Notes: generated from the sequence alone by a model not told the origin. Shown: positions 18,868 through 47,014, counted from the stretch's first letter. The stretch: 64,000 nt of DNA from a virus (IMGVR_UViG_3300018022_000004); one strand, 5' to 3'. Numbers and translations: made by a program.

Positions 18868-18984
18868 CCTGTCAGGGACAGGAGGTGGGACATGTAGAGC
18901 ATAGCCCTTACTTAACCTGACTTTTCACAAGCGCCTAGATAAGCAGTGAGCAGCAGGGGGAGGCCGTCCCTCCCCCTGCGCTAG

Positions 18985-19030
18985 AAAAAAAGTTCCCGAG
19001 AATCTCGACTACCGGTGGTATTATATAGGT
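18985..19030 (+). promoter_or_regulatory. promoter of tRNA operon 1
   Basis: A7 tract, then CGACTACCGGTGGTATTATATAG; near-identical motif at 41809-41834. Confidence 0.7.
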
Positions 19031-19043
19031 GGAGAAAGCGGCC

Positions 19044-19136
19044 ATGAACAGCCTATCGTACAACTCGTCGTCCTTGAGCTATAGCAGCTCCCTGCTTAGC
19101 AGCTCCCTCGTGTTGTCCGATGGCTGGAACGGGTAA
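19044..19136 (+). CDS. attenuator leader peptide 1, MNSLSYNSSSLSYSSSLLSSSLVLSDGWNG
   Basis: GGAG SD at 19031-19034; 13 Ser, 6 Leu, 2 Tyr in 30 codons; precedes a Tyr/Leu/Ser-only tRNA operon. Confidence 0.85.
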   Translation: MNSLSYNSSSLSYSSSLLSSSLVLSDGWNG

Positions 19137-19168
19137 AGGCCAGCAAAATCGGGCAAGACGAGGCGGCT
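19098..19168 (+). promoter_or_regulatory. antiterminator helix of attenuator 1
   Basis: 19106-19121 pairs with 19148-19163 (15/16 incl. one G-U); inner GCTGG/CCAGC hairpin; overlaps the terminator 5' arm. Confidence 0.75.
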
Positions 19169-19190
19169 GAGAAGCCGCCGTTTTTGTTTT
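19162..19190 (+). terminator. attenuator terminator 1
   Basis: GGCGGCT-GAGA-AGCCGCC then GTTTTTGTTTT. Confidence 0.9.
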
Positions 19191-19201
19191 ATGGGGTTTT
19201 T

Positions 19202-19290
19202 GCCAGTGTGGGCGAGAGGCTAATGCCAGCAGACTGTAAATCTGCCGCCCCTTGCGGGCTTCGCAGGTTCAAATCCTGCCGCTGGCACCA
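19202..19290 (+). tRNA. tRNA-Tyr(GTA)
   Basis: Loop CTGTAAA; long V arm; CCA. Confidence 0.95.
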
Positions 19291-19329
19291 AGTTTCAGGG
19301 CACGGGAGATGCGTGCCCGGATAGGATTA

Positions 19330-19417
19330 GCCGGGCTGGCGGAACGGGAGACGCAGGGCACTTAAAACGCCTGGGCCTTCAAAAGCCATGGGGGTTCGAT
19401 TCCCTCGCCCGGTACCA
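19330..19417 (+). tRNA. tRNA-Leu(TAA)
   Basis: Loop CTTAAAA; long V arm; CCA. Confidence 0.92.
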
Positions 19418-19423
19418 AGGTCT

Positions 19424-19510
19424 GCGGTCGTGTCGGAATAGGCAGACGAGCAAGGTTGAGAGCCTTGTGCCTGCAAGGGCGTGGGGGTTCGATTCCCCCC
19501 GACCGCACCA
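19424..19510 (+). tRNA. tRNA-Leu(GAG)
   Basis: Loop TTGAGAG; CCA. Confidence 0.93.
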
Positions 19511-19515
19511 AGACT

Positions 19516-19602
19516 GCGAGGGTGTCGTAACTGGCAGCCGAGCGGGTCTGAGAGGCCCGTGGGGGAGACCCCGTGAGGGTTCGAGTCCCTCCCTTCGCAC
19601 CA
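19516..19602 (+). tRNA. tRNA-Leu(GAG), second
   Basis: Loop CTGAGAG; CCA. Confidence 0.92.
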
Positions 19603-19609
19603 GGTCTAT

Positions 19610-19698
19610 GCCGGGATGGCGGAACAGGCAGACGCACTGGGCTTAGAACCCAGCACCCCGCAAGGGGCATGGGGGTCCGAGTCCCCCTCCCGGTACCA
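19610..19698 (+). tRNA. tRNA-Leu(TAG)
   Basis: Loop CTTAGAA; T loop TCCGAGT; CCA. Confidence 0.93.
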
Positions 19699-19708
19699 AG
19701 TTCGTCCT

Positions 19709-19795
19709 GCGGATGTGTCGGAACTGGCAGACGAGCAGCGCTCAGAACGCTGTGTGGGCAACCATGTGGAGGTTCGAGTCCTCTCATCCGCACCA
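19709..19795 (+). tRNA. tRNA-Leu(CAG)
   Basis: Loop CTCAGAA; CCA. Confidence 0.94.
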
Positions 19796-19801
19796 GGCTT
19801 T

Positions 19802-19888
19802 GCGGTCGTGCTGGAAATGGCAGACGGGCGGGCCTCAGAAGCCCGTGTGGGAGACCACGTGGAGGTTCGATGCCTCTCGGCCGCACCA
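19802..19888 (+). tRNA. tRNA-Leu(CAG), second
   Basis: Loop CTCAGAA; CCA. Confidence 0.93.
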
Positions 19889-19894
19889 AGACTT

Positions 19895-19981
19895 GCCGCA
19901 GTGGCGGAACAGGCAGACGCACACGGCCCAAACCCGTATGCCGTCAAAGGCGTGGGGGTTCGACTCCCCCCTGCGGCACCA
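19895..19981 (+). tRNA. tRNA-Leu(CAA) with C33
   Basis: Loop CCCAAAC; Leu-type D and V arms; CCA. Confidence 0.85.
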
Positions 19982-20032
19982 GGCTCGCAACCGACTGTCC
20001 GATTTTCGGACATGCCGGTCGCACAGGTTCAA

Positions 20033-20126
20033 GGAGAGGTGGCCGAGCGGCCTAAGGCGCTGGTTTGCTAAACCAGAGTACGGGCTAAACCCCGTACCGT
20101 GGGTCCGAATCCCACCCTCTCCGCCA
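20033..20126 (+). tRNA. tRNA-Ser(GCT)
   Basis: Loop TTGCTAA; G73; CCA. Confidence 0.95.
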
Positions 20127-20132
20127 TTTCAG

Positions 20133-20220
20133 GGAAGGACCCGCTGCGTGGGCGGCAACTGGCTTTGAACCCCAGGGCACGGGTGACACCGTGGGCGTTC
20201 GACTCGTCGTCCTTCCGCCA
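20133..20220 (+). tRNA. tRNA-Ser(TGA), 8/4 fold
   Basis: GGAAGGAC/GTCCTTCC acceptor; 4-bp T stem; loop TTTGAAC; G73 CCA. Confidence 0.82.
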
Positions 20221-20267
20221 ACCTTTACAGGCAGGGGCATATTTACACCTGCTGTAAAGAATGCTTT

Positions 20268-20358
20268 GGAGAGGTGCCCGAGCGGCCTAAGGGGCACGCC
20301 TGGAAAGCGTGTAGTCCTCAAAAAGGACTCGTGGGTCCGAATCCCACCCTCTCCGCCA
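20268..20358 (+). tRNA. tRNA-Ser(GGA)
   Basis: Loop CTGGAAA; G73 CCA. Confidence 0.95.
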
Positions 20359-20365
20359 TTCCCCC

Positions 20366-20451
20366 GGAGGGTACTGCCGAACGGCCGGCAACTGGCCTCG
20401 AAAGCCAGGGCAGGGCAAAACCTGGGGGTTCGATTCCTCTGCCCTCCGCCA
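20366..20451 (+). tRNA. tRNA-Ser(CGA), 8/4 fold
   Basis: GGAGGGTA/TGCCCTCC acceptor; 4-bp T stem; loop CTCGAAA. Confidence 0.85.
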
Positions 20452-20463
20452 AGCTAACCTAAC

Positions 20464-20496
20464 GGGCCCTCCTGCGGGAGGGCCTTTCTATTTTTA
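20464..20496 (+). terminator. terminator closing tRNA operon 1
   Basis: GGCCCTCC-TGCG-GGAGGGCC then TTTCTATTTTT. Confidence 0.85.
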
Positions 20497-21026: not shown

Positions 21027-21503
21027 ATGGCTACCGAGGTCAAGGCACCGGGGGAGTACAACAAGCTCCTGGCCCCCAAGATATTCCTGGGCGGGGCGAT
21101 AGACCAGGGGGAGGCCGAGGACTGGCAGTCGAAGGTCGTCAGGGGCCTAGAGGGCATAGACTGCCTCGTCCTCAACCCCCGCAGGGCGGACTGGGACCCC
21201 GACTGGGAGCAGTCCATCGACAGCCCGGAGTTCAGGGAGCAGGTCGAGTGGGAGCTTAAGGCGCAGGAGGAGGCGGACCTCAACGTCTACGTCCTCCTGG
21301 AGGACAGCAAGGGCCCCGTGACCATGCTGGAGATAGGGCTGTTCGCCGGGAAGGAGAGCGTCCTCTGCATCGAGGAGGGCTTCTACCGCAGGGGCAACCT
21401 CGAAATCGTGGCCCAGCGCTACAACATCCCCATCTACAGGAAGCTGGACGACATGCTGGCCGACCTCCGCACGGCGCTGGGGAAGCGGGCCAGGGAGGGC
21501 TAG
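21027..21503 (+). CDS. nucleoside 2-deoxyribosyltransferase-like domain protein
   Basis: IFLGGAI...DWQ...LNPRR.DWD...QVEWEL...TMLEIGL. Confidence 0.85.
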   Translation: MATEVKAPGEYNKLLAPKIFLGGAIDQGEAEDWQSKVVRGLEGIDCLVLNPRRADWDPDWEQSIDSPEFREQVEWELKAQEEADLNVYVLLEDSKGPVTMLEIGLFAGKESVLCIEEGFYRRGNLEIVAQRYNIPIYRKLDDMLADLRTALGKRAREG

Positions 21504-22547
21504 GTGCTCTTCCGCCTCACCTCGGGGTTCCTCGTCACGGCCAGGCTGCCCAGGCGGCCCGGCCTGGTCGGCCCCCTCTACCACGGCACCACATACACCT
21601 TCGACGAGTTCAAGCTGCCGGAGGACACCGGGATGGGGCATACGGGGCTGGGGATACACTTCGGCACCGCCCAGCAGGCGGGTGCGAGGGCCATGGGGTA
21701 CTTCGGCAGGGAGGAGGAGGGGGCCAGCATCCACCCTGTCTACCTAAGCGTAGGGAAGCCCCTCCGCATGCGGGACCTCTACAACTGGGGCCCTGTCGCC
21801 GTCTCCAACGAGCTTTACCTCGAACACATAATCAGCCACGACCAGCACAGGCATATCCTGGCCCTCGGATACGGGCCAGAGGGGTATGCCAGGGCCTACT
21901 CCCTCCTCCGCCAGTGGCTCGACGAGGCAGGGTACGACGCCATAGTCTACCGCAACAGGACAGAGGGGCCGGGGGACAGCTATATCGTATGGCATACGAA
22001 GCAGATAGTCCCTGCCCTCTCGAAGGCCGCCGCCCTGCGCAAGCGCCCGGGCCTCATCGGCCCCGTGTACCACGGCACCAGGAGCATGTTCGACAGGTTC
22101 TCCCTGCCCGAGGAACTCAGTGACGAAGGGGACCTGGGGATACACTTCGGAAACCCGAGGCAGGCCGGGCACAGGGCGCTGTACGACTGGGACCCGTCGA
22201 AGGGGGATGTCCTGACCGCCGAGCCAGGAGCGAACATTCGCCCTGTCTACCTGGACGTCAAAAAGCCCCTGCGCATGTACGACGCCGTCGTCTGGACCCC
22301 CAGGAGGGTGGCGCTCGGCCTCTTCGAGCGGAGGCTGATGACCCGTGACGAGATGCAGAAGTTTACCAGGTCGAGGGCGGTCCCCACGAAGGAGTGGTAC
22401 CACAGCAGCCACAGGCTCCTCCGCAAGTGGATAGAGGACAGGGGTTACGACTCCGTCGTCTACCGCAACGAGTACGAGGGGGGAGGCGACAGCTATATCG
22501 TCTGGCACCCGGAGCAGATAGTCCCTGCCCTGGAGGCACGGCAATGA
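21504..22547 (+). CDS. tandem ADP-ribosyltransferase-like (ART-PolyVal type) domains
   Basis: Two copies of YHGT...GIHFG...PVYL..KPL...GYD.IVYRN..EG.GDSYIVWH..QI. Confidence 0.7.
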   Translation: MLFRLTSGFLVTARLPRRPGLVGPLYHGTTYTFDEFKLPEDTGMGHTGLGIHFGTAQQAGARAMGYFGREEEGASIHPVYLSVGKPLRMRDLYNWGPVAVSNELYLEHIISHDQHRHILALGYGPEGYARAYSLLRQWLDEAGYDAIVYRNRTEGPGDSYIVWHTKQIVPALSKAAALRKRPGLIGPVYHGTRSMFDRFSLPEELSDEGDLGIHFGNPRQAGHRALYDWDPSKGDVLTAEPGANIRPVYLDVKKPLRMYDAVVWTPRRVALGLFERRLMTRDEMQKFTRSRAVPTKEWYHSSHRLLRKWIEDRGYDSVVYRNEYEGGGDSYIVWHPEQIVPALEARQ

Positions 22548-41794: not shown

Positions 41795-41836
41795 GATTTC
41801 CCCGGGTTTTCCGACTACCGGAGGTATTATATAGAT
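41795..41836 (+). promoter_or_regulatory. promoter of tRNA operon 2
   Basis: TTTTCCGACTACCGGAGGTATTATATAG, near-identical to 19003-19028. Confidence 0.72.
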
Positions 41837-41919
41837 GAAAGGCTGGTCACTCAGGGCCGGCAGGGACGGCTGGGAGCCGGACGCAAGTGTTACCCGGTCA
41901 GCCGCCCGAAGATTGGTGG

Positions 41920-42012
41920 ATGATGCGATTCAGGAACCCCAACCCGCAGATGCATTGGCAGCCTAAGCGGAATACCCGCTCGGGCACCGTTGGGCCTCCT
42001 ATCGCAGGCTAG
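41920..42012 (+). CDS. attenuator leader peptide 2, MMRFRNPNPQMHWQPKRNTRSGTVGPPIAG
   Basis: First 18 codons use only M,R,F,N,P,Q,H,W,K, the operon-2 tRNA set; SD is weak (GGTGG close to ATG). Confidence 0.82.
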   Translation: MMRFRNPNPQMHWQPKRNTRSGTVGPPIAG

Positions 42013-42051
42013 CTGAGATTCCAAGGCGATTGAAGTGAAGAGGCCCACCGG
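41987..42051 (+). promoter_or_regulatory. antiterminator helix of attenuator 2
   Basis: CCGTTGGGCCTC (41987-41998) pairs with GAGGCCCACCGG (42040-42051), 11/12; inner ATCGC/GCGAT; covers most of the terminator 5' arm. Confidence 0.8.
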
Positions 42052-42080
42052 GTGATGAACCTGATGGGCTTTTTGGTTTT
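42041..42080 (+). terminator. attenuator terminator 2
   Basis: GCCCACCGGGT-GATGA-ACCTGATGGGC then TTTTTGGTTTT. Confidence 0.85.
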
Positions 42081-42124
42081 ATGGGGATTAAGTCGTGGCG
42101 TGGGTACCTTCCGCCATGCAGAGT

Positions 42125-42201
42125 GTGGCCGAGGCCGAAGTCGTCGAGGCGCTAGGCTGTGAACCTAGTCTAAGAGGGTCCGAGTCCCTCCGGTCACCCC
42201 A
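42125..42201 (+). tRNA. tRNA-His(GTG), no encoded G-1
   Basis: Loop CTGTGAA; C73; T at -1; atypical D loop. Confidence 0.85.
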
Positions 42202-42281
42202 ATCAAGCTGGCAGACCCGTATGACCGTTCCGGGTACTAAGAGCCAAAGGTCGTTAATCATGGCCGCCAGCAAGGTCTTTT

Positions 42282-42358
42282 GGTCCCGTCGCCCAGCGGA
42301 CTAGGGCGCTGCGCTCCGAACGCAGAGGTCGTGGGTCCGAATCCCACCGGGACTTCCA
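42282..42358 (+). tRNA. tRNA-Arg(CCG)
   Basis: Loop CTCCGAA; CCA. Confidence 0.93.
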
Positions 42359-42439
42359 GATTGCGTGGGTGAATCCCCTTGCAGGGGGAGGGATAGGCGG
42401 CCCCAGGCCCAGGGCACGGCGACCCACGCAGAGAGTTTT

Positions 42440-42518
42440 GGCCCCGTAGCTCAGCCTGGACTAGAGCAGCGGTCTACGAAACCGAAGGTCGAGGGTTCAA
42501 ATCCCTCCGGGGCTTCCA
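42440..42518 (+). tRNA. tRNA-Arg(ACG)
   Basis: Loop CTACGAA; CCA. Confidence 0.95.
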
Positions 42519-42613
42519 TCTTGCGCAGGTAGGGTGGCCACAGGGTGAGCAGCGGGAGGCATCCCGAGGACATCTGCAAGACCCCTTATACCATGCCTGC
42601 ACCAGATTATCAG

Positions 42614-42690
42614 GCCCCCGTGGCCCAGACGGATAGGGTACCGGTCCTCGAAACCGGACGCCGAGGGTTCGACTCCCTCCGGGGGTTCCA
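42614..42690 (+). tRNA. tRNA-Arg(TCG) with C33
   Basis: CCGGT-CCTCGAA-ACCGG. Confidence 0.88.
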
Positions 42691-42774
42691 GGTTTGTGGT
42701 GGGTGGTCACGCCGTTGACAACGCCGATGGGCGGACGAGGCGACTGGCCGGGGCGTCCCGCCCGAACAGATTGC

Positions 42775-42861
42775 TGGGGTGTAGGCGACGTTGGTAAAGC
42801 CACTTGACTGTTAATCAAGCGCCTTGCGGCACCGGGGGTTCGATTCCTCCCGCCCCAGCCA
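42775..42861 (+). tRNA. tRNA-Asn(GTT) with long variable arm
   Basis: Loop CTGTTAA; V arm GCC-TTGC-GGC; G73 CCA. Confidence 0.85.
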
Positions 42862-42962
42862 AAGATTGCCGTCCCGACCGTACAGCGGGAAGACGTGTTG
42901 CCACTACCGAAGCAGGACGTCATTGACTAGGTCATAATGTGGCCGGACGGCAACGGGTTAGG

Positions 42963-43039
42963 CCCGTTTAAGCCGATGCGGTGCATGGCGCTCCCCTGAA
43001 AAGGGAGAGAACCCCGTTCGACTCGGGGAGGCGGGACCA
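42963..43039 (+). tRNA. tRNA-Phe(GAA), atypical
   Basis: Loop CTGAAAA; A8; CCCCG/CGGGG T stem; CCA. Confidence 0.8.
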
Positions 43040-43046
43040 AGTTTAT

Positions 43047-43123
43047 CAGGGTGTAGCTCAGCCTGGCAGAGCGCATGCTTGGGGTGCATGAGGCCGTGGG
43101 TTCAAATCCCTCCATCCTGACCA
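43047..43123 (+). tRNA. tRNA-Pro(GGG)
   Basis: Loop TTGGGGT; CCA. Confidence 0.93.
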
Positions 43124-43131
43124 AGTTCCTG

Positions 43132-43210
43132 GCGTGCCAGAGGGTTCGACTCCCGAGGCCAACGGCGCTGTTAGCAAAGGGTTCGACTCCCGAGGCCACC
43201 GGAGGCACGC
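43132..43210 (+). repeat. double T-arm element: 21-nt direct repeat inside a closing stem
   Basis: AGGGTTCGACTCCCGAGGCCA at 43141 and 43178; GCGTGCC/GGCACGC closing stem. Confidence 0.75.
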
Positions 43211-43213
43211 AGA

Positions 43214-43289
43214 CGGTGTGTAGCTCAGCGGCTAGAGCACTCGGTTTGGGGCCGAGGGGTCGTGGGTCCGAATCCCACCACGCCGACCA
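43214..43289 (+). tRNA. tRNA-Pro(TGG)
   Basis: Loop TTTGGGG; CCA. Confidence 0.93.
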
Positions 43290-43296
43290 AGTTTAT

Positions 43297-43373
43297 CAGG
43301 GTGTAGCTCAGCCTGGCAGAGCGCTGGTTTCGGGAACCAGAGGCCGAGAGTTCAAATCTCTCCATCCTGACCA
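43297..43373 (+). tRNA. tRNA-Pro(CGG)
   Basis: Loop TTCGGGA; near-duplicate of Pro(GGG). Confidence 0.94.
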
Positions 43374-43380
43374 AGGTTGT

Positions 43381-43455
43381 TCCGAGGTCGTCTAACCGGT
43401 AGGACGCATGGCTCTGAACCATGAAATGCGGGTTCGACCCCAGCTCTCGGAACCA
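43381..43455 (+). tRNA. tRNA-Gln(CTG)
   Basis: Loop CTCTGAA; T-stem mismatch; CCA. Confidence 0.85.
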
Positions 43456-43557
43456 AGGCTCGGGGAGGGCGAGTTAGCGTGGCCTATGGGCCACTTTATA
43501 GACAGGATGCCTCCCCACTATGCTAGGAAGCAGCTCGGAAGTGGGATGCTTCAGAGT

Positions 43558-43632
43558 TCAGGAGTAGCTCAACGGTAGAGCGTCCGGCTGTTAACCGGAA
43601 TGTTGGGGGTCCGATTCCCTCCTCCTGAGCCA
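43558..43632 (+). tRNA. tRNA-Asn(GTT)
   Basis: Loop CTGTTAA; short V; G73 CCA. Confidence 0.94.
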
Positions 43633-43639
43633 AGCTCAA

Positions 43640-43717
43640 GGGAGCGTAACTCAAAGGGGCAAGAGAGCCAGCCTTTTAAGCTGGTGCGTGCGGGCACCCA
43701 ATCCGCCGCTCCCACCA
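43640..43717 (+). tRNA. tRNA-Lys(TTT) with aberrant T loop
   Basis: CCAGC-CTTTTAA-GCTGG; T loop CACCCAA instead of TTCRANT. Confidence 0.75.
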
Positions 43718-43724
43718 AGGACTA

Positions 43725-43802
43725 GCCGCCGTGGCGCAACTGGACCAGCGCACCCGGCTCTTACCCGGAGGGTTGGAGGTTCGAGTCCTCTCGGCGGCAC
43801 CA
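43725..43802 (+). tRNA. tRNA-Lys(CTT)
   Basis: Loop CTCTTAC; CCA. Confidence 0.9.
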
Positions 43803-43808
43803 AGATTC

Positions 43809-43885
43809 GGGTCGGTAGCTCAACTAGGCAGAGCAAGGGCCTCTTAAGCCCGAGGTTGAGGGTTCGATTCCCTCCCGGCCTACCA
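43809..43885 (+). tRNA. tRNA-Lys(CTT), second
   Basis: Loop CTCTTAA; CCA. Confidence 0.92.
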
Positions 43886-43891
43886 AGAAAG

Positions 43892-43952
43892 CCCGGCGAT
43901 GTGGGGTTCAAGTCCCCACCTTGAGTGTCGTTCAACTGGCTAGGATACCGGG
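43892..43952 (+). ncRNA. circularly permuted tRNA-like module (T arm, mini-hairpin, D arm)
   Basis: CCCGG...GGGGTTCAAGTCCCC...GTTCAACTGGCTAGGAT-A-CCGGG. Confidence 0.55.
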
Positions 43953-43959
43953 GGCATCG

Positions 43960-44034
43960 GCCGATGGAGCTAGGATGGTATAGCGCCTGCCTGAAGAGCA
44001 GGAGTGACCGGTTCGATTCCGGGCATCGGCACCA
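43960..44034 (+). tRNA. tRNA-Phe(GAA), second
   Basis: Loop CTGAAGA; CCA. Confidence 0.9.
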
Positions 44035-44044
44035 AGTTTGTTGT

Positions 44045-44118
44045 TCCGAGGTCGGCTAACGGTAGGCCGCTGCGCTCTGGACGCAGCTATCGGGGTCCGA
44101 ATCCCTGCCTCGGAACCA
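44045..44118 (+). tRNA. tRNA-Gln(CTG), second
   Basis: Loop CTCTGGA; CCA. Confidence 0.9.
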
Positions 44119-44125
44119 GGACTAC

Positions 44126-44202
44126 AGCGGGGTGGAGCAGCCTGGTAGCTCGTGAGGCTCATAACCTCAAGGTCGCCGGTTCAAATCCGGCCCCCGCAAC
44201 CA
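44126..44202 (+). tRNA. tRNA-Met(CAT), initiator-like
   Basis: xGCGGGGTGGAGCAGCCTGGTAGCTC fMet-type body; 1:72 mismatch. Confidence 0.9.
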
Positions 44203-44294
44203 TTCGGGTCGGGATGCCAGCCGGGAGACCGTGACTGGATGCCAAGGGTATACGGCAAAGCCCGTAGAGAGCAGGAACCGGCCCGCAGCATTGA

Positions 44295-44371
44295 TGCGGG
44301 GTAGAACTCTGGTGAGTTTAGGGGTCTCATAAGCCTCTTACAGGTGGGTCCGATTCCCATTCCCGCTACCA
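44295..44371 (+). tRNA. tRNA-CAT (Met/fMet-like; Ile2 not excluded)
   Basis: Loop CTCATAA; T1.T72 mismatch; CCA. Confidence 0.8.
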
Positions 44372-44376
44372 TCTCA

Positions 44377-44452
44377 GGGGCGCAGGGTAGCTCAGTCTGG
44401 TAGAGCAGCCCGGAAAGGCTGGTCGGAGGTTCAAATCCTCCCCCGAGGCCCC
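44377..44452 (+). ncRNA. tRNA mimic with truncated anticodon arm and extended acceptor, no CCA
   Basis: Canonical D and T arms; only 13 nt between them (AGCC-CGGAAA-GGCT hairpin). Confidence 0.6.
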
Positions 44453-44458
44453 GTAGCA

Positions 44459-44554
44459 GGCACGCCGATTCGGAGAGGACCGCAGGCGGCTAACCCAGGA
44501 GCAGCGTACGCAACCTCCCGGACCCCGCAGGCAAGTCGCTGGACAAGGCGTGCC
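44459..44554 (+). ncRNA. putative ~96-nt structured RNA
   Basis: Perfect GGCACGCC/GGCGTGCC closing stem. Confidence 0.4.
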
Positions 44555-44565
44555 GAGGATTACGT

Positions 44566-44643
44566 GGCGGCGTAGCTCAGTCGGCAGAGCCGGGGTCCCA
44601 TAAGCCCTGTGAGTCGGAGGTTCGAGTCCTCTCGCCGCTACCA
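44566..44643 (+). tRNA. tRNA-Met(CAT), elongator-like, C33
   Basis: GGCGGCGTAGCTCAG body; loop CCCATAA. Confidence 0.85.
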
Positions 44644-44644
44644 G

Positions 44645-44835
44645 GATGCGGAGGGCCGCCGTCCACAGACGGGCGGCTGTGGCTCAGTACCGTAGCCGGG
44701 CCTGCTAGCGGGCGAGGCTACGGGCCACGTCCGGTTAGCTCCGGACCTCTACGAGAGTCGAGGGCCGCAGACAGTTGCACAGCGGCAGCCCGGTACCCAT
44801 CCGGGTGTAGCGAGTCGGCATGCTACGGCCTTCGA
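44645..44835 (+). ncRNA. putative multi-hairpin RNA (~190 nt)
   Basis: Run of hairpins: CCGCCGTC/GACGGGCGG, CGTAGCC/GGCTACG, TCCGG/CCGGA, GCCGC/GCGGC, CCCGG/CCGGG. Confidence 0.4.
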
Positions 44836-44840
44836 GCTTT

Positions 44841-45045
44841 GCCCGTGTATGCGAACAGGCACAGCGGCGTACAACGAAGAGAACGCCTCGGTAGGAGCGA
44901 GTTGCGGAGGAACCGAAAGGGGCGGGACGCCCGGAGGCCAGGGACAATCTGGCCACCCTACGGGGTGTAGGGAATCACGTTATCGCCTACCGAAGCAGTC
45001 CCCGCAAGGGACTGTATGCGGGTTCGATTCCCGCCACGGGCACCA
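44841..45045 (+). ncRNA. 205-nt tRNA-Leu-like RNA with a 106-nt inserted domain
   Basis: GCCCGTG/CACGGGC acceptor, A73, CCA; Leu-type D arm; long V arm; canonical T arm; non-canonical anticodon arm. Confidence 0.7.
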
Positions 45046-45048
45046 AGC

Positions 45049-45121
45049 TGGACGCCAGAGATGCGGGTCCGAATCCCGCAGGCACACCGTGCTGCGTAGC
45101 CTTGATGGTAGCAGTGGCCAG
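45049..45121 (+). ncRNA. second permuted tRNA-like module
   Basis: T arm GCGGG-TCCGAAT-CCCGC, closed hairpin, D-like loop with GG, flanks CTGG..CCA/TGGCCAG. Confidence 0.4.
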
Positions 45122-45179
45122 GCTCCTAGGCACCTGGCCGTGCCTTCGTTCAACAGGAAGGACGCTGGCCCTGTTTCCA

Positions 45180-45254
45180 GGCCTGGTAAGCTAACTGGCA
45201 AACTGCCGGTCTCCAAAACCGGACTTAGGGGTTCAAATCCTCTCCAGGTCGCCA
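45180..45254 (+). tRNA. tRNA-Trp(CCA)
   Basis: Loop CTCCAAA; G73 CCA. Confidence 0.92.
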
Positions 45255-45259
45255 AGTCT

Positions 45260-45463
45260 ATGGAAGAAGGGATGCTAGCAGAAGCGTTCGGGAGAATCCT
45301 GAGGTTCCCCCTCAGCCCGGAGGTCGTGATAGTGGGCAGGGAGGTATGGGACAGGCTGCCCGAGGCCGAGGCCCGGATTGTGGAGTTCGACGGGTTCAGG
45401 CACCTGGCGGCTGAGCATAACGGCACCCTCTTCCTCCACCCCCTCTCGGAGGCGGGCGACTGA
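45260..45463 (+). CDS. small hypothetical protein within the tRNA array
   Basis: 67-aa ORF between the two Trp tRNAs. Confidence 0.45.
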   Translation: MEEGMLAEAFGRILRFPLSPEVVIVGREVWDRLPEAEARIVEFDGFRHLAAEHNGTLFLHPLSEAGD

Positions 45464-45470
45464 CTATTGC

Positions 45471-45557
45471 AGGGGCGTGGCCCAGCGGCAACGGCAGCGG
45501 TCTCCAAAACCGCCACGCTACGGCGTTTCGGGGGTTCGAGTCCCTCCGCCCCTGCCA
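45471..45557 (+). tRNA. tRNA-Trp(CCA) with long variable arm
   Basis: Loop CTCCAAA; V arm ACGC-TACG-GCGT; G73 CCA. Confidence 0.85.
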
Positions 45558-45559
45558 AC

Positions 45560-45582
45560 TTTCTGAGGTATTATATAGGTGA
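45560..45582 (+). promoter_or_regulatory. internal promoter
   Basis: GAGGTATTATATAG, identical to the 41821-41834 core. Confidence 0.6.
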
Positions 45583-45618
45583 GCGGTTTTCTGTGCCCCT
45601 TAGTAGGGGGGACGACCT

Positions 45619-46170
45619 ATGAGCCACGACTGCCTGATACTCGACATGAACTGGACGCCGGTCGGCTTCTGCTCCTGGCAGGAGGCGGTCAGGCTGTGGG
45701 TAAAGGACCGTGCCCGGATAGTCAAGGAGGACGAGGCGGGCAGGGTGCTGCACAGCCCCTCCTTCGAGATGGGCATGCCCAGGGTCATCCGGGTGCGGAA
45801 CGCCTGGGTACGGCGCAGGCGGCAGTCCGTCCCCTGCACGAGGCGCAACCTGTTAGTCCGTGACAACGCCGCCTGCCAGTACTGCGGCAGGACCATCAGG
45901 ACGCACGAGTACACCACGGACCACGTCGTGCCCATCTGCCAGGGCGGAAGGACGACCTGGGAGAACACGGTCACGGCATGTATGAAGTGCAACAAGCACA
46001 AGGGCGGCAGGACGCCGGAGCAGGCGGGCATGGAGCTTCTCAGCACGCCCAAGGCCCCCAAGGCAGCGGACCCCCGCTTCAACTTCAAGCTGCACATCAA
46101 GACCATGCGGCCGGAGTGGAAGGACTGGGAGTCCTGGCTGTACTGGAACGCCGTCTTAGACAAGGAGTAA
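45619..46170 (+). CDS. HNH endonuclease
   Basis: CQYCG...TDHVVP...GG.TTWEN.VTAC.KCN..KG. Confidence 0.9.
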   Translation: MSHDCLILDMNWTPVGFCSWQEAVRLWVKDRARIVKEDEAGRVLHSPSFEMGMPRVIRVRNAWVRRRRQSVPCTRRNLLVRDNAACQYCGRTIRTHEYTTDHVVPICQGGRTTWENTVTACMKCNKHKGGRTPEQAGMELLSTPKAPKAADPRFNFKLHIKTMRPEWKDWESWLYWNAVLDKE

Positions 46171-46221
46171 GGCTCGTGGCCCCGTGGGCCAGCCATATAC
46201 GGGGCACAAGATTAGAGTTCC

Positions 46222-46298
46222 ACCCCTGTAGCTCAGCGGACTAGAGTGCCGGTCCTCTAAACCGGGTGACGTGGGTCCGAATCCCACCAGGGGTACCA
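46222..46298 (+). tRNA. tRNA-Arg(TCT) with C33
   Basis: CCGGT-CCTCTAA-ACCGG; CCA. Confidence 0.88.
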
Positions 46299-46332
46299 AG
46301 ATGCCCTAAAGCCAGGGCGAAGGAGCAAGCCT

Positions 46333-46608
46333 ATGCACATACGGTCCCAAGCGCTGGCAGTAGTGGTAGTCCTTTTCGTGCTGGCAGTCGTGCTCCTGTG
46401 GCCGGTAAAGCGCCCGGCGAGCCACTGCCCAAAGCCAGCAGGCGGATGCAGGACGTCCGTGCAGTCGAAGGGGGGAGACGACGATGTCCCCCTGGCATAC
46501 TGGATAGTGATTACCTCGTCCGCCGAGGAAGAAGCAGTGCAGGAAGAGGAGACGCCATCGGATACCGACGTTGATGCTGGCGACGCCGGGGATGGCGGCG
46601 GAGACTAA
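46333..46608 (+). CDS. small membrane/secreted protein with acidic tail
   Basis: GGAG SD; N-terminal hydrophobic helix. Confidence 0.5.
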   Translation: MHIRSQALAVVVVLFVLAVVLLWPVKRPASHCPKPAGGCRTSVQSKGGDDDVPLAYWIVITSSAEEEAVQEEETPSDTDVDAGDAGDGGGD

Positions 46609-46614
46609 GGTTTT

Positions 46615-46690
46615 GGCCCCGTAGCTCAGCGTATAGAGCGGCCGCCTCCTAAGCGGCAGGTCGTGGGTTAGACTCCCACCGGGGCTTCCA
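46615..46690 (+). tRNA. tRNA-Arg(CCT), T loop TTAGACT
   Basis: Loop CTCCTAA; A56; CCA. Confidence 0.88.
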
Positions 46691-46707
46691 TTTTACCAGG
46701 AGGACAG

Positions 46708-46929
46708 ATGGCGGGGACGGGGACGACTAGCACGGCATGGTTCGGCTTCTGGCTCGGGGCTGGCCTGACAGGAGCGTTCATCCTGCTTATGGCCCTGCTC
46801 CGCTACGGCTGGAAGGGGCTGGAGTGGCTCCTCCGTTCGTCCTCGTACAGGCCCGTCGCCTGCCTGCTCCTGGGGATGCTTTTCCTGGGGGCCTACAGGC
46901 TCCTCAGGAGGAGGCTAGGCCAGCAGTAG
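46708..46929 (+). CDS. small two-TM membrane protein
   Basis: AGGAGG SD; hydrophobic. Confidence 0.6.
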   Translation: MAGTGTTSTAWFGFWLGAGLTGAFILLMALLRYGWKGLEWLLRSSSYRPVACLLLGMLFLGAYRLLRRRLGQQ

Positions 46930-46935
46930 ATGCGT

Positions 46936-47014
46936 GTCCCCGTAGCTCAGCCCGGACTAGAGCAGCGGTTTCCTAAACCGAAGGCCGCAGGTTCAAATCC
47001 TGCCGGGGATACCA
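46936..47014 (+). tRNA. tRNA-Arg(CCT), second
   Basis: Loop TTCCTAA; CCA. Confidence 0.93.

Follow-up and report, generated by a model that had tools for sequence, protein, structure and literature searches.

Why would a phage set a short open reading frame (ORF) rich in serine, leucine and tyrosine codons, followed by a transcription terminator, directly ahead of an array of tRNA genes for these same three amino acids? The question is raised by the viral DNA IMGVR_UViG_3300018022_000004, analysed here as one stretch of 64,000 nucleotides (nt), which we call the window. It is phage-like DNA of 64% G+C, belongs to a giant phage from peat soil and carries 35 tRNA genes in two arrays; the element in question is the leader of the first array, and all features of the window named below lie on its plus strand. 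The purpose of phage tRNAs has long been debated, with codon compensation, replacement of degraded host tRNAs and evasion of anticodon nucleases as proposals, and to our knowledge the regulation of phage tRNA genes is essentially unknown. Based on sequence comparison and folding models, we consider it likely that the element is a ribosome-mediated (leader-peptide) transcription attenuator, which would switch the array of Tyr, Leu and Ser tRNA genes on during slow decoding of those codons.

Leader peptides and the tRNA arrays behind them

The leader ORF (19044-19136) comprises 30 codons and a TAA stop, and its product would be MNSLSYNSSSLSYSSSLLSSSLVLSDGWNG. Codons 3-22 are nearly all Ser, Leu or Tyr, and the frame is kept in relatives. 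A Shine-Dalgarno sequence, GGAG (19031-19034), is located 9 nt ahead of the ATG and is identical in the close relative L161. The ORF contains 13 Ser codons (AGC, TCG and TCC), 6 Leu codons of five different kinds (CTA, TTG twice, CTG, CTT and CTC) and 2 Tyr codons, one of each kind (TAC and TAT); a script returned the same counts as those given in an earlier interpretation of this DNA from its sequence alone (the sequence-only reading), which had also named the GGAG. An upstream GTG at 19029, which would yield a 35-residue ORF, was rejected as the start because the codon falls inside the promoter/start region. The element thus has two features of leader-peptide attenuators: a short ORF in the 5' leader, complete with start codon and ribosome-binding site, and a cluster of control codons.

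The 12 tRNA genes that follow (19202-20451, identified with ARAGORN) would be the regulated cargo. They are Tyr-GTA; Leu-TAA, GAG (two copies), TAG, CAG (two copies) and CAA; and Ser-GCT, TGA, GGA and CGA, so that the array serves only Tyr, Leu and Ser, as the sequence-only reading had stated. The first of them, tRNA-Tyr, begins 22 nt past the terminator stem, which leaves no room for a second promoter, and a terminator found by scanning (20464-20485) closes the array.

To quantify the match between leader and array, we defined the control codons as the leader without Met1 and without the last ten codons, which form RNA helices. In the leader of the first array 19 control codons are left, and 17 of them encode Ser, Leu or Tyr, where the proteins of the phage itself give a background of 0.17 (binomial P = 1.3e-11). 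A chance origin of the leader composition is excluded.

The window holds a second, sister element (41813-42086), with a promoter box (41813-41834), a leader ORF (41920-42012), a terminator (42041-42071) and a trailing motif. It precedes an array of 23 tRNA genes (42131-47014) for His, Arg, Asn, Phe, Pro, Gln, Lys, Met and Trp. Of the 19 control codons in the second leader, 18 belong to these nine amino acids and all nine are present; the first 18 residues consist of nothing else and use every one. The second leader is also 30 residues long, ends in Gly and shares the trailing motif with the first, and the common design that the sequence-only reading had seen in the two leaders extends to 13 leaders of the clade. 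In the long 5' untranslated region (UTR) of the second leader there is a hairpin, GGAGCCGGACG...TTACCCGGTC (window 41873-41905; about 107930-107960 in the relative G001, described below), which by eye is conserved between the window and lineages B and C, and which could be a further regulatory or processing element.

A search with the promoter box identified IMG/VR contigs in which the box is followed by a short ORF, a terminator and a tRNA array. One of these, IMGVR_UViG_3300041809_000571 (G001; 316,945 bp; estimated completeness 99%), shares synteny with the window, its proteins being 27-81% identical over 60 kb. It carries 60 tRNA genes in four arrays, with one leader per array. All four leaders are enriched in the amino acids of their own array, and each amino-acid kind of an array occurs in its leader. 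The control region reads MKNLSSNSLSSLSYSSSLLS... in the leader of array 1 (Tyr/Leu/Ser), MRNRKPNPMQWQPKRHF... in that of array 2 (His/Arg/Asn/Lys/Phe/Met/Pro/Gln/Trp), MLTITMPHTQTQTTI... in that of array 3 (Ile/Thr/Gln) and ...VDLIEAVAAVCEGGD... in that of array 4 (Val/Gly/Ala/Asp/Glu/Cys). Lineages C, D, E and F show the pattern again.

The nearest cultured relative found by protein search is Tunturiibacter phage Tunturi_5 (PP885688.1; 308,711 bp), the helicase of which is 53.5% identical. Its host is the acidobacterium Tunturiibacter psychrotolerans X4BP1. The phage was described as having 43 tRNA genes, and the passages on tRNA in that description contain nothing on tRNA regulation (PMC11924767). 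The tRNA genes form three arrays with a partition unlike that of the window's clade, and the leaders track that partition. Array A (Leu, Cys, Tyr, Ser) is preceded by the unannotated leader MKTLCLSSYCLSSSLSLSDGW... (PP885688.1 231156-231254; L273 857-955), and array B (Asn, Gln, Gly, Thr, Pro, His, Ala, Phe) by the unannotated leader MQHVSTFRFAVPATAGNPAGQQGTNA... (PP885688.1 239222-239335; L273 8923-9036). The leader of array C (Trp, Asp, Met, Lys, Val, Arg, Glu, Ile, Gly), ...DIRGKRGVVVDTWDITIRGERKW.DVRDMRV..., is annotated as 'hypothetical protein' gp308 (PP885688.1 251573-251722, equivalent to L273 21274-21423), which on our reading is the leader peptide of this third array. In Tunturi_5 the tRNA-Cys gene resides in the Leu/Tyr/Ser array, and the leader of that array has two TGC codons; in the window's clade tRNA-Cys belongs to the Val/Gly/Ala/Asp/Glu array, and it is the leader of that array which has a Cys codon. 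Among the arguments that the leader would read out the tRNAs behind it, this joint change of cargo and leader is the strongest. Leader A of Tunturi_5 and the window's leader have a C-terminal L-S-D-G-W motif in common, which encodes the strand that pairs with the terminator region.

Taken together, a match to the own array was observed for 13 leaders of the window's clade and the three of Tunturi_5. In all leaders examined, every amino-acid kind of the array is found within the control region, with Met in leader C of Tunturi_5, which comes later in the leader, as the sole exception. Indels between lineages are in frame, and the control codons of L161 differ by synonymous Ser changes only, which together look like a signature of translation. 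The peptide sequences differ between leader types, save where RNA helices constrain them.

We also used a blind pipeline, which takes the best-matching ORF of 14-60 codons at most 450 nt upstream of any array of at least three tRNA genes and scores it against a generic background. The score at the window's leader was 2.8e-12, compared with a best score of 5e-4 among 57 unrelated phage tRNA arrays that had been fetched by tRNA T-arm pattern as a negative-control set. The nine arrays of the window, G001 and Tunturi_5 all scored 1.1e-4 or better, the Ile/Thr/Gln leader of G001 being picked up only with the upstream span widened to 800 nt. Among the control contigs, ORFs on L372 (minus strand), L339 (plus strand) and L284 (minus strand) are possible leaders, with scores of 1e-3 to 2e-2 that are unconvincing alone; an example from this set is MKELKTKDISIIMENQKDLVEILVEL..., 15 nt ahead of an array of 18 tRNA genes, with 21 of 25 codons within the array's set.

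Codon choice bears on the further proposal of the sequence-only reading, that the leader senses individual tRNA species. The window's genes use CTG (52%) and CTC (33%) for most Leu residues and TTG for 2%, yet TTG occurs twice in the leader; under the phage's own usage, at least five distinct Leu codons in six draws have P = 0.009. The Gln codon is CAG in leaders of arrays with tRNA-Gln(CUG), and mostly CAA where the array has tRNA-Gln(UUG). Coverage of an array's distinct anticodons by cognate leader codons exceeds that of synonymous resampling in eight of nine leaders and is complete (9/9) for leader 1 of G001, although the P values range from 0.02 to 0.75 per leader and the leaders are not independent. 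These observations are suggestive, not conclusive, of an isoacceptor-level design. For the window's leader, the reading that every isoacceptor is sensed is only partly supported, because several Leu codons lie outside the predicted sensing window (see below).

BLASTN of the region against 50,697 phage records, a collection outside which the window's lineage lies, gave matches to tRNA-Tyr only and no leader homologue. A locus search guided by a neighbouring peptidase protein yielded lineage B only, and a scan by T-arm pattern for more Tyr-first arrays produced no further relatives. A metagenome scan with a 16-base leader pattern gave at least 119 matches, of which four (L161, L225, L241 and L256) were left when the rest of the leader was required downstream; the remaining matches were taken as chance. 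DNA of the window phage occurs in some 20 metagenome studies of peat and wetland.

Some of the related loci have features of their own. In the Ile/Thr/Gln unit (L004 1640-2002; also L001 and L013) a 120-residue ORF lies between the attenuator and the first tRNA gene; it has a weak match to DUF6915 (E = 8e-6, below the cut-off) and would be co-regulated with the Ile/Thr/Gln tRNAs. In lineage C, a reverse-strand ORF of 125 residues (L128 976-1350, minus strand) is inserted between the terminator of the attenuator and the array, ahead of tRNA-His; with a weak match to HNH_3 it looks like a homing endonuclease. Lineage C has no promoter box directly upstream of its Tyr/Leu/Ser leader. The 78-kb contig IMGVR_UViG_3300035490_000323 (G003; L002, L135-L138) has the same G+C content as the window (63.8%) and a promoter and 5' UTR nearly identical to those of the window's first leader. 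It holds a Val/Gly/Ala/Asp/Glu/Cys array with its leader, and may derive from the window's own phage genome, as another part of it, or from a very close one.

Promoter, RNA helices and predicted switching

A conserved 22-nt box, GACTACCGGNGGTATTATATAG, with an extended -10 sequence TGGTATTAT at 19016-19024, precedes the leader at 19007-19028 (GACTACCGGTGGTATTATATAG). It has exactly two exact copies in the window, each ahead of a leader, where shuffled sequences lead one to expect none, and the same box is found ahead of tRNA-array leaders in the IMG/VR relatives. We take it to be a phage promoter, as its conservation suggests. An A tract 5' of the box (18985-18991), seen as a similar A-rich stretch in relatives too, is a possible UP element. 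Just 5' of the A tract and box there is a GC-rich hairpin, GGGGGAGG-CCGT-CCCTCCCCC (18956-18976), with a T tract on neither strand.

Downstream of the control codons, an intrinsic terminator hairpin, GGCGGCT-GAGA-AGCCGCC (19162-19179), is followed by a T tract (19180-19192) and a conserved trailing motif, GTTTTTGTTTTATGGGG, the two together spanning 19180-19196; the window has two copies, both 3' of leader terminators. An independent terminator scan also picked up the hairpin that the sequence-only reading had described. The terminator stem is kept in relatives while its loop varies, and its 5' arm starts 22-28 nt past the stop codon in 13 of 13 clade leaders and 25-31 nt past it in Tunturi_5.

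The terminator is mutually exclusive with a longer helix formed by region 2 (19100-19127; leader codons 19-28) and region 3 (19140-19169), which overlaps the terminator 5' arm at 19162-19169. In the predicted fold the apical loop of this antiterminator (19128-19139) contains the stop codon (19134-19136). A base-by-base hand count agrees with the pairing claimed by the sequence-only reading: 15 of 16 positions of 19106-19121 pair with 19148-19163 (one G.G mismatch, one G.U), and AGCAGC (19098-19103) lengthens the helix onto GGCGGCT. The long 2:3 helix is present in both the minimum free energy (MFE) and the centroid structure (RNAfold; z = -2.65), and its predicted stability is -42 kcal/mol, compared with -14 kcal/mol for the terminator. 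A third helix, which the sequence-only reading had missed, is the conserved anti-antiterminator, in which region 1 (19049-19067; codons 3-8) pairs with 19109-19126. Up to the point where transcription has reached about 19157, this 1:2 helix is the MFE structure of the growing RNA; beyond it the 2:3 helix is more stable. The 1:2 pairing is also predicted in lineages B and C, in a shifted register by reading of the two folds. The conserved Asn codons, foreign to the array, are part of region 1; their pairing partner in region 2 is GUUGU.

We numbered the leader types T1-T4, T1 being the type of the window's Tyr/Leu/Ser leader. The final codons of each type, about ten in number, supply the 5' strand of a long hairpin that has the stop codon in its apical loop and a 3' strand running into the terminator 5' arm; this is why the C-terminal thirds of the peptides lack an array match. 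Such a placement of the stop codon is seen in the folds of types T3 and T4, and by hand pairing in leader A of Tunturi_5. Covariation in related phages, which the sequence-only reading had proposed as a check alongside the conservation described above, shows compensatory pairs in T1 and T4. In the four T1 sequences 96% of cells of the antiterminator are paired, versus 27-50% in slid controls, and one C-G pair of the window is changed to G-C in lineages B and C (GCUGG/CCAGC to GGUGG/CCACC), a change that, from reading of the folds, is accommodated in region 1 by the register shift. In T4 the apical helix of the antiterminator has three compensatory pairs (5/500 shuffles) and the terminator four (0/500 shuffles), and the 1:2 hairpin is invariant.

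An intrinsic terminator between leader ORF and tRNA genes, a 2:3 helix exclusive with it and a 1:2 helix over the control codons are thus found together, and the features of a leader-peptide attenuator that can be sought in a sequence all appear to be present. The cargo departs from the usual one: in place of genes for amino-acid biosynthesis, transport or aminoacyl-tRNA synthetases there are 12 tRNA genes, and the mechanism does not require the usual cargo.

The transcript was then folded at equilibrium with a 28-nt ribosome footprint masked. For T1, an A site placed on codons 6-15 gives a terminator probability of at most 0.01, and one placed on codons 18-30 gives 0.5-0.98, which predicts an effective sensing window of roughly codons 5-16. 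Switching as predicted was obtained for T1 and T2. The logic in these models is classical: region 2 would become available to the antiterminator upon a stall on early control codons, and would be taken away by a ribosome that continues.

We propose that transcription starts at the conserved extended -10 promoter and that a ribosome loads at GGAG/AUG. With fast decoding of Ser, Leu and Tyr codons, the ribosome would reach the stop codon in the apical loop, unwinding and occupying region 2; region 3 would then be free, the local terminator hairpin would form, and RNA polymerase would stop 22 nt ahead of tRNA-Tyr. Scarcity of any charged Ser-, Leu- or Tyr-tRNA that is needed would make the ribosome stall within roughly codons 5-16, where it would break the 1:2 helix and leave region 2 free. 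Region 2 would pair with region 3 (-42 kcal/mol) and sequester the terminator 5' arm, and the polymerase would read into the 12 tRNA genes. Decoding capacity would in this way come under negative feedback, since the tRNAs produced decode the tested codons. From the parts, their conservation and the match of each leader to its own array, we infer that the leader is translated, that ribosomes stall on it and that the tRNA genes are controlled in this way. The idea of the sequence-only reading that stalling on Ser, Leu or Tyr codons permits antitermination gains support from the anatomy, from ribosome-masked folding and, above all, from the comparison of leaders and arrays.

Points against attenuation and rival explanations

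Several observations weigh against this mechanism. A generic sigma-70 scan of the region returned no -35/-10 pair, and the case for a promoter comes from the conservation of the box. In G001, at 253779 on the minus strand (L012/L016), a box with two mismatches precedes an ordinary 70-residue ORF and not a tRNA leader; the box would therefore be a promoter class and not a part of the attenuator. Over the full length of its control region, type T4 shows no more than moderate enrichment (12/22, P = 0.11). Covariation in T1 is thin, with four sequences, one compensatory pair and 56/500 shuffles. At equilibrium, folding of T1 predicts read-through both without a ribosome and with a ribosome on the stop codon (terminator probability 0.05), so that termination in the fed state would have to depend on kinetics, namely fast formation of the local hairpin and a preformed 1:2 helix. 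The terminator probability hardly changes at equilibrium in types T3 and T4 and in leaders A and C of Tunturi_5: sequestration of the 5' arm is clear in the models of T1 and T2 and weak or flat in those of the other four, which we do not count as support. Finally, a stall is predicted not to relieve termination at the positions of several Leu codons: CTT, CTC, the second TTG and, for the most part, CTG.

The flat equilibrium models, in which several sister leaders keep the terminator at any ribosome position, would suit a terminator that is a constitutive leaky dampener setting a fixed low tRNA level, with an ORF of no regulatory consequence. We regard this as quite unlikely, since it leaves unexplained why 16 leaders in at least six lineages spell the amino acids of their own array, why leader composition tracks arrays that are partitioned differently, and why compensatory changes have preserved an antiterminator that overlaps the terminator. 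Translation of the leader could alternatively be sensed with another output, such as Rho access, RNase processing, stability of the tRNA precursor, or an inverse logic in which a stall means off. Without a ribosome T1 is ambiguous, in that the 1:2 helix forms first and the 2:3 helix is favoured thermodynamically, and the conserved motif past the T tract could be a processing site. Such outputs are nonetheless improbable given hairpins that are GC-rich, have T tracts and keep a fixed distance from the stop codon, and given control codons upstream of region 2, where a stall would free the antiterminator and not the terminator.

The signal, as distinct from the mechanism, may also be read differently, as a general response to amino-acid starvation, with the match to the array as a by-product of tRNA grouping by amino acid. 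A stalled ribosome is blind to whether a tRNA is missing or uncharged, which holds for every leader-peptide attenuator. Extra tRNA would not relieve amino-acid starvation, though, and the cargo would make sense only if tRNA supply is limiting; moreover, the CAG/CAA split for Gln and the twofold use of the rare (2%) Leu codon TTG point to isoacceptors. We hold starvation as the intended signal to be very unlikely. T-box RNAs, which sense uncharged tRNA ahead of translation-related genes, offer a precedent for an untranslated RNA that binds tRNAs directly via codon-like triplets, and the ORF might otherwise encode a functional micropeptide; the precedent is a general one, and nothing specific to the element favours either. 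We reject both as scarcely credible: Rfam release 15 gives no T-box or other cis-regulatory match even at E <= 10, about 20 in-frame cognate codons, not one specifier, stand behind a Shine-Dalgarno sequence and AUG, indels are in frame and changes synonymous, and the peptides are not conserved between leader types except under RNA-helix constraint. Ribosome-mediated attenuation remains the reading that we favour.

Known attenuators and the meaning for phage tRNA genes

A cmscan search against all Rfam 15 families (E <= 10) gave only tRNA and chance-level matches, and the hallmarks of a T-box (RF00230), a stem I bearing a specifier loop and the conserved T-box sequence of the antiterminator bulge, were not found. 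T-boxes resemble the phage element in sensing tRNA status and in a terminator/antiterminator choice ahead of translation-related genes, but they bind uncharged tRNA directly, without translation. The enterobacterial leaders trpL, hisL, pheL and leuL are single-amino-acid sensors of host biosynthetic operons; the pheL attenuator has been reviewed (PMC3082878). They have the same parts and would belong to the same mechanism class, with no sequence or Rfam relationship to the phage element.

Closer in regulated function are leaders of aminoacyl-tRNA synthetase genes. In E. coli, a leader-peptide attenuator lies ahead of pheST, and Streptomyces leuS reportedly has a synthetase-gene leader attenuator as well. 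As in the phage element, a component of translation is regulated by decoding of cognate codons; the differences are that the cargo is a synthetase, that one amino acid is sensed and that the genes are cellular and not viral.

The closest known kin, by analogy, would be the multivalent enterobacterial leaders of ilvGMEDA (Ile/Leu/Val), thr (Thr/Ile) and ivbL (Val/Leu), in particular those of ilv and thr. They share a short translated leader, clustered codons for several amino acids, 1:2, 2:3 and 3:4 regions with an intrinsic terminator, and a stall that frees the antiterminator. The phage element differs in that it is phage-encoded, has tRNA genes and not biosynthetic enzymes as cargo, covers three to nine amino acids per leader (nine in 41920-42012), places the stop codon in the antiterminator apical loop, and would have decoding capacity and not amino-acid supply as its feedback variable. 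Full-text literature searches and targeted look-ups in individual papers returned no description of leader-peptide control of tRNA genes, nor of leader regulation of phage tRNA genes. A tRNA-gene cargo under trp-operon-style leader-peptide control is apparently new, being undescribed in the literature searched.

The window also encodes an Rnl1-type RNA ligase of the T4 kind (757-2016; PF09511, E = 1.8e-11), which has 55% identity to its counterpart in G001. In T4, this family of enzymes repairs tRNA cut by anticodon nuclease, and the ligase fits a theme of tRNA maintenance. Directly 3' of array 1 (21027-22547) are genes for two proteins, one resembling nucleoside 2-deoxyribosyltransferases (PF15891, E = 4e-28) and the other carrying a pair of ART-PolyVal ADP-ribosyltransferase domains (PF18760, E = 3e-23).

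Phage tRNAs have been reported to counter tRNA-cleaving immunity by replacing host tRNAs that were destroyed by anticodon nucleases, retron effectors or PARIS (PMC10264068, PMC11555353, PMC11464382). A search of PMC10264068 turned up none of the terms 'attenuat', 'leader', 'terminator' and 'promoter'. We tentatively speculate that giant phages of Acidobacteriota, and perhaps many others, keep their tRNA genes in separately gated regulons, each behind a 'codon test strip' that samples most of its own isoacceptors; this is possible, and we would not call it probable. The phage would gauge host decoding codon by codon and switch on the block of tRNAs that is failing, possibly as an alarm and repair circuit against tRNA-cleaving defences or phage-induced decay of host tRNA, and leader and array would co-evolve when tRNA genes move.

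If a leader does test the codons which its array decodes, phage tRNA supply would be demand-driven, with each array in its own feedback loop, and leader-peptide attenuation would reach from metabolism to the translation machinery itself. Because a cultured phage with a known host, Tunturi_5, bears three such leaders, the question is directly testable. Each hypothesis on the role of phage tRNAs would gain a testable prediction, the inducer of the array, and the leader sequence would be a readable, genome-encoded statement of the decoding failures that the phage expects.

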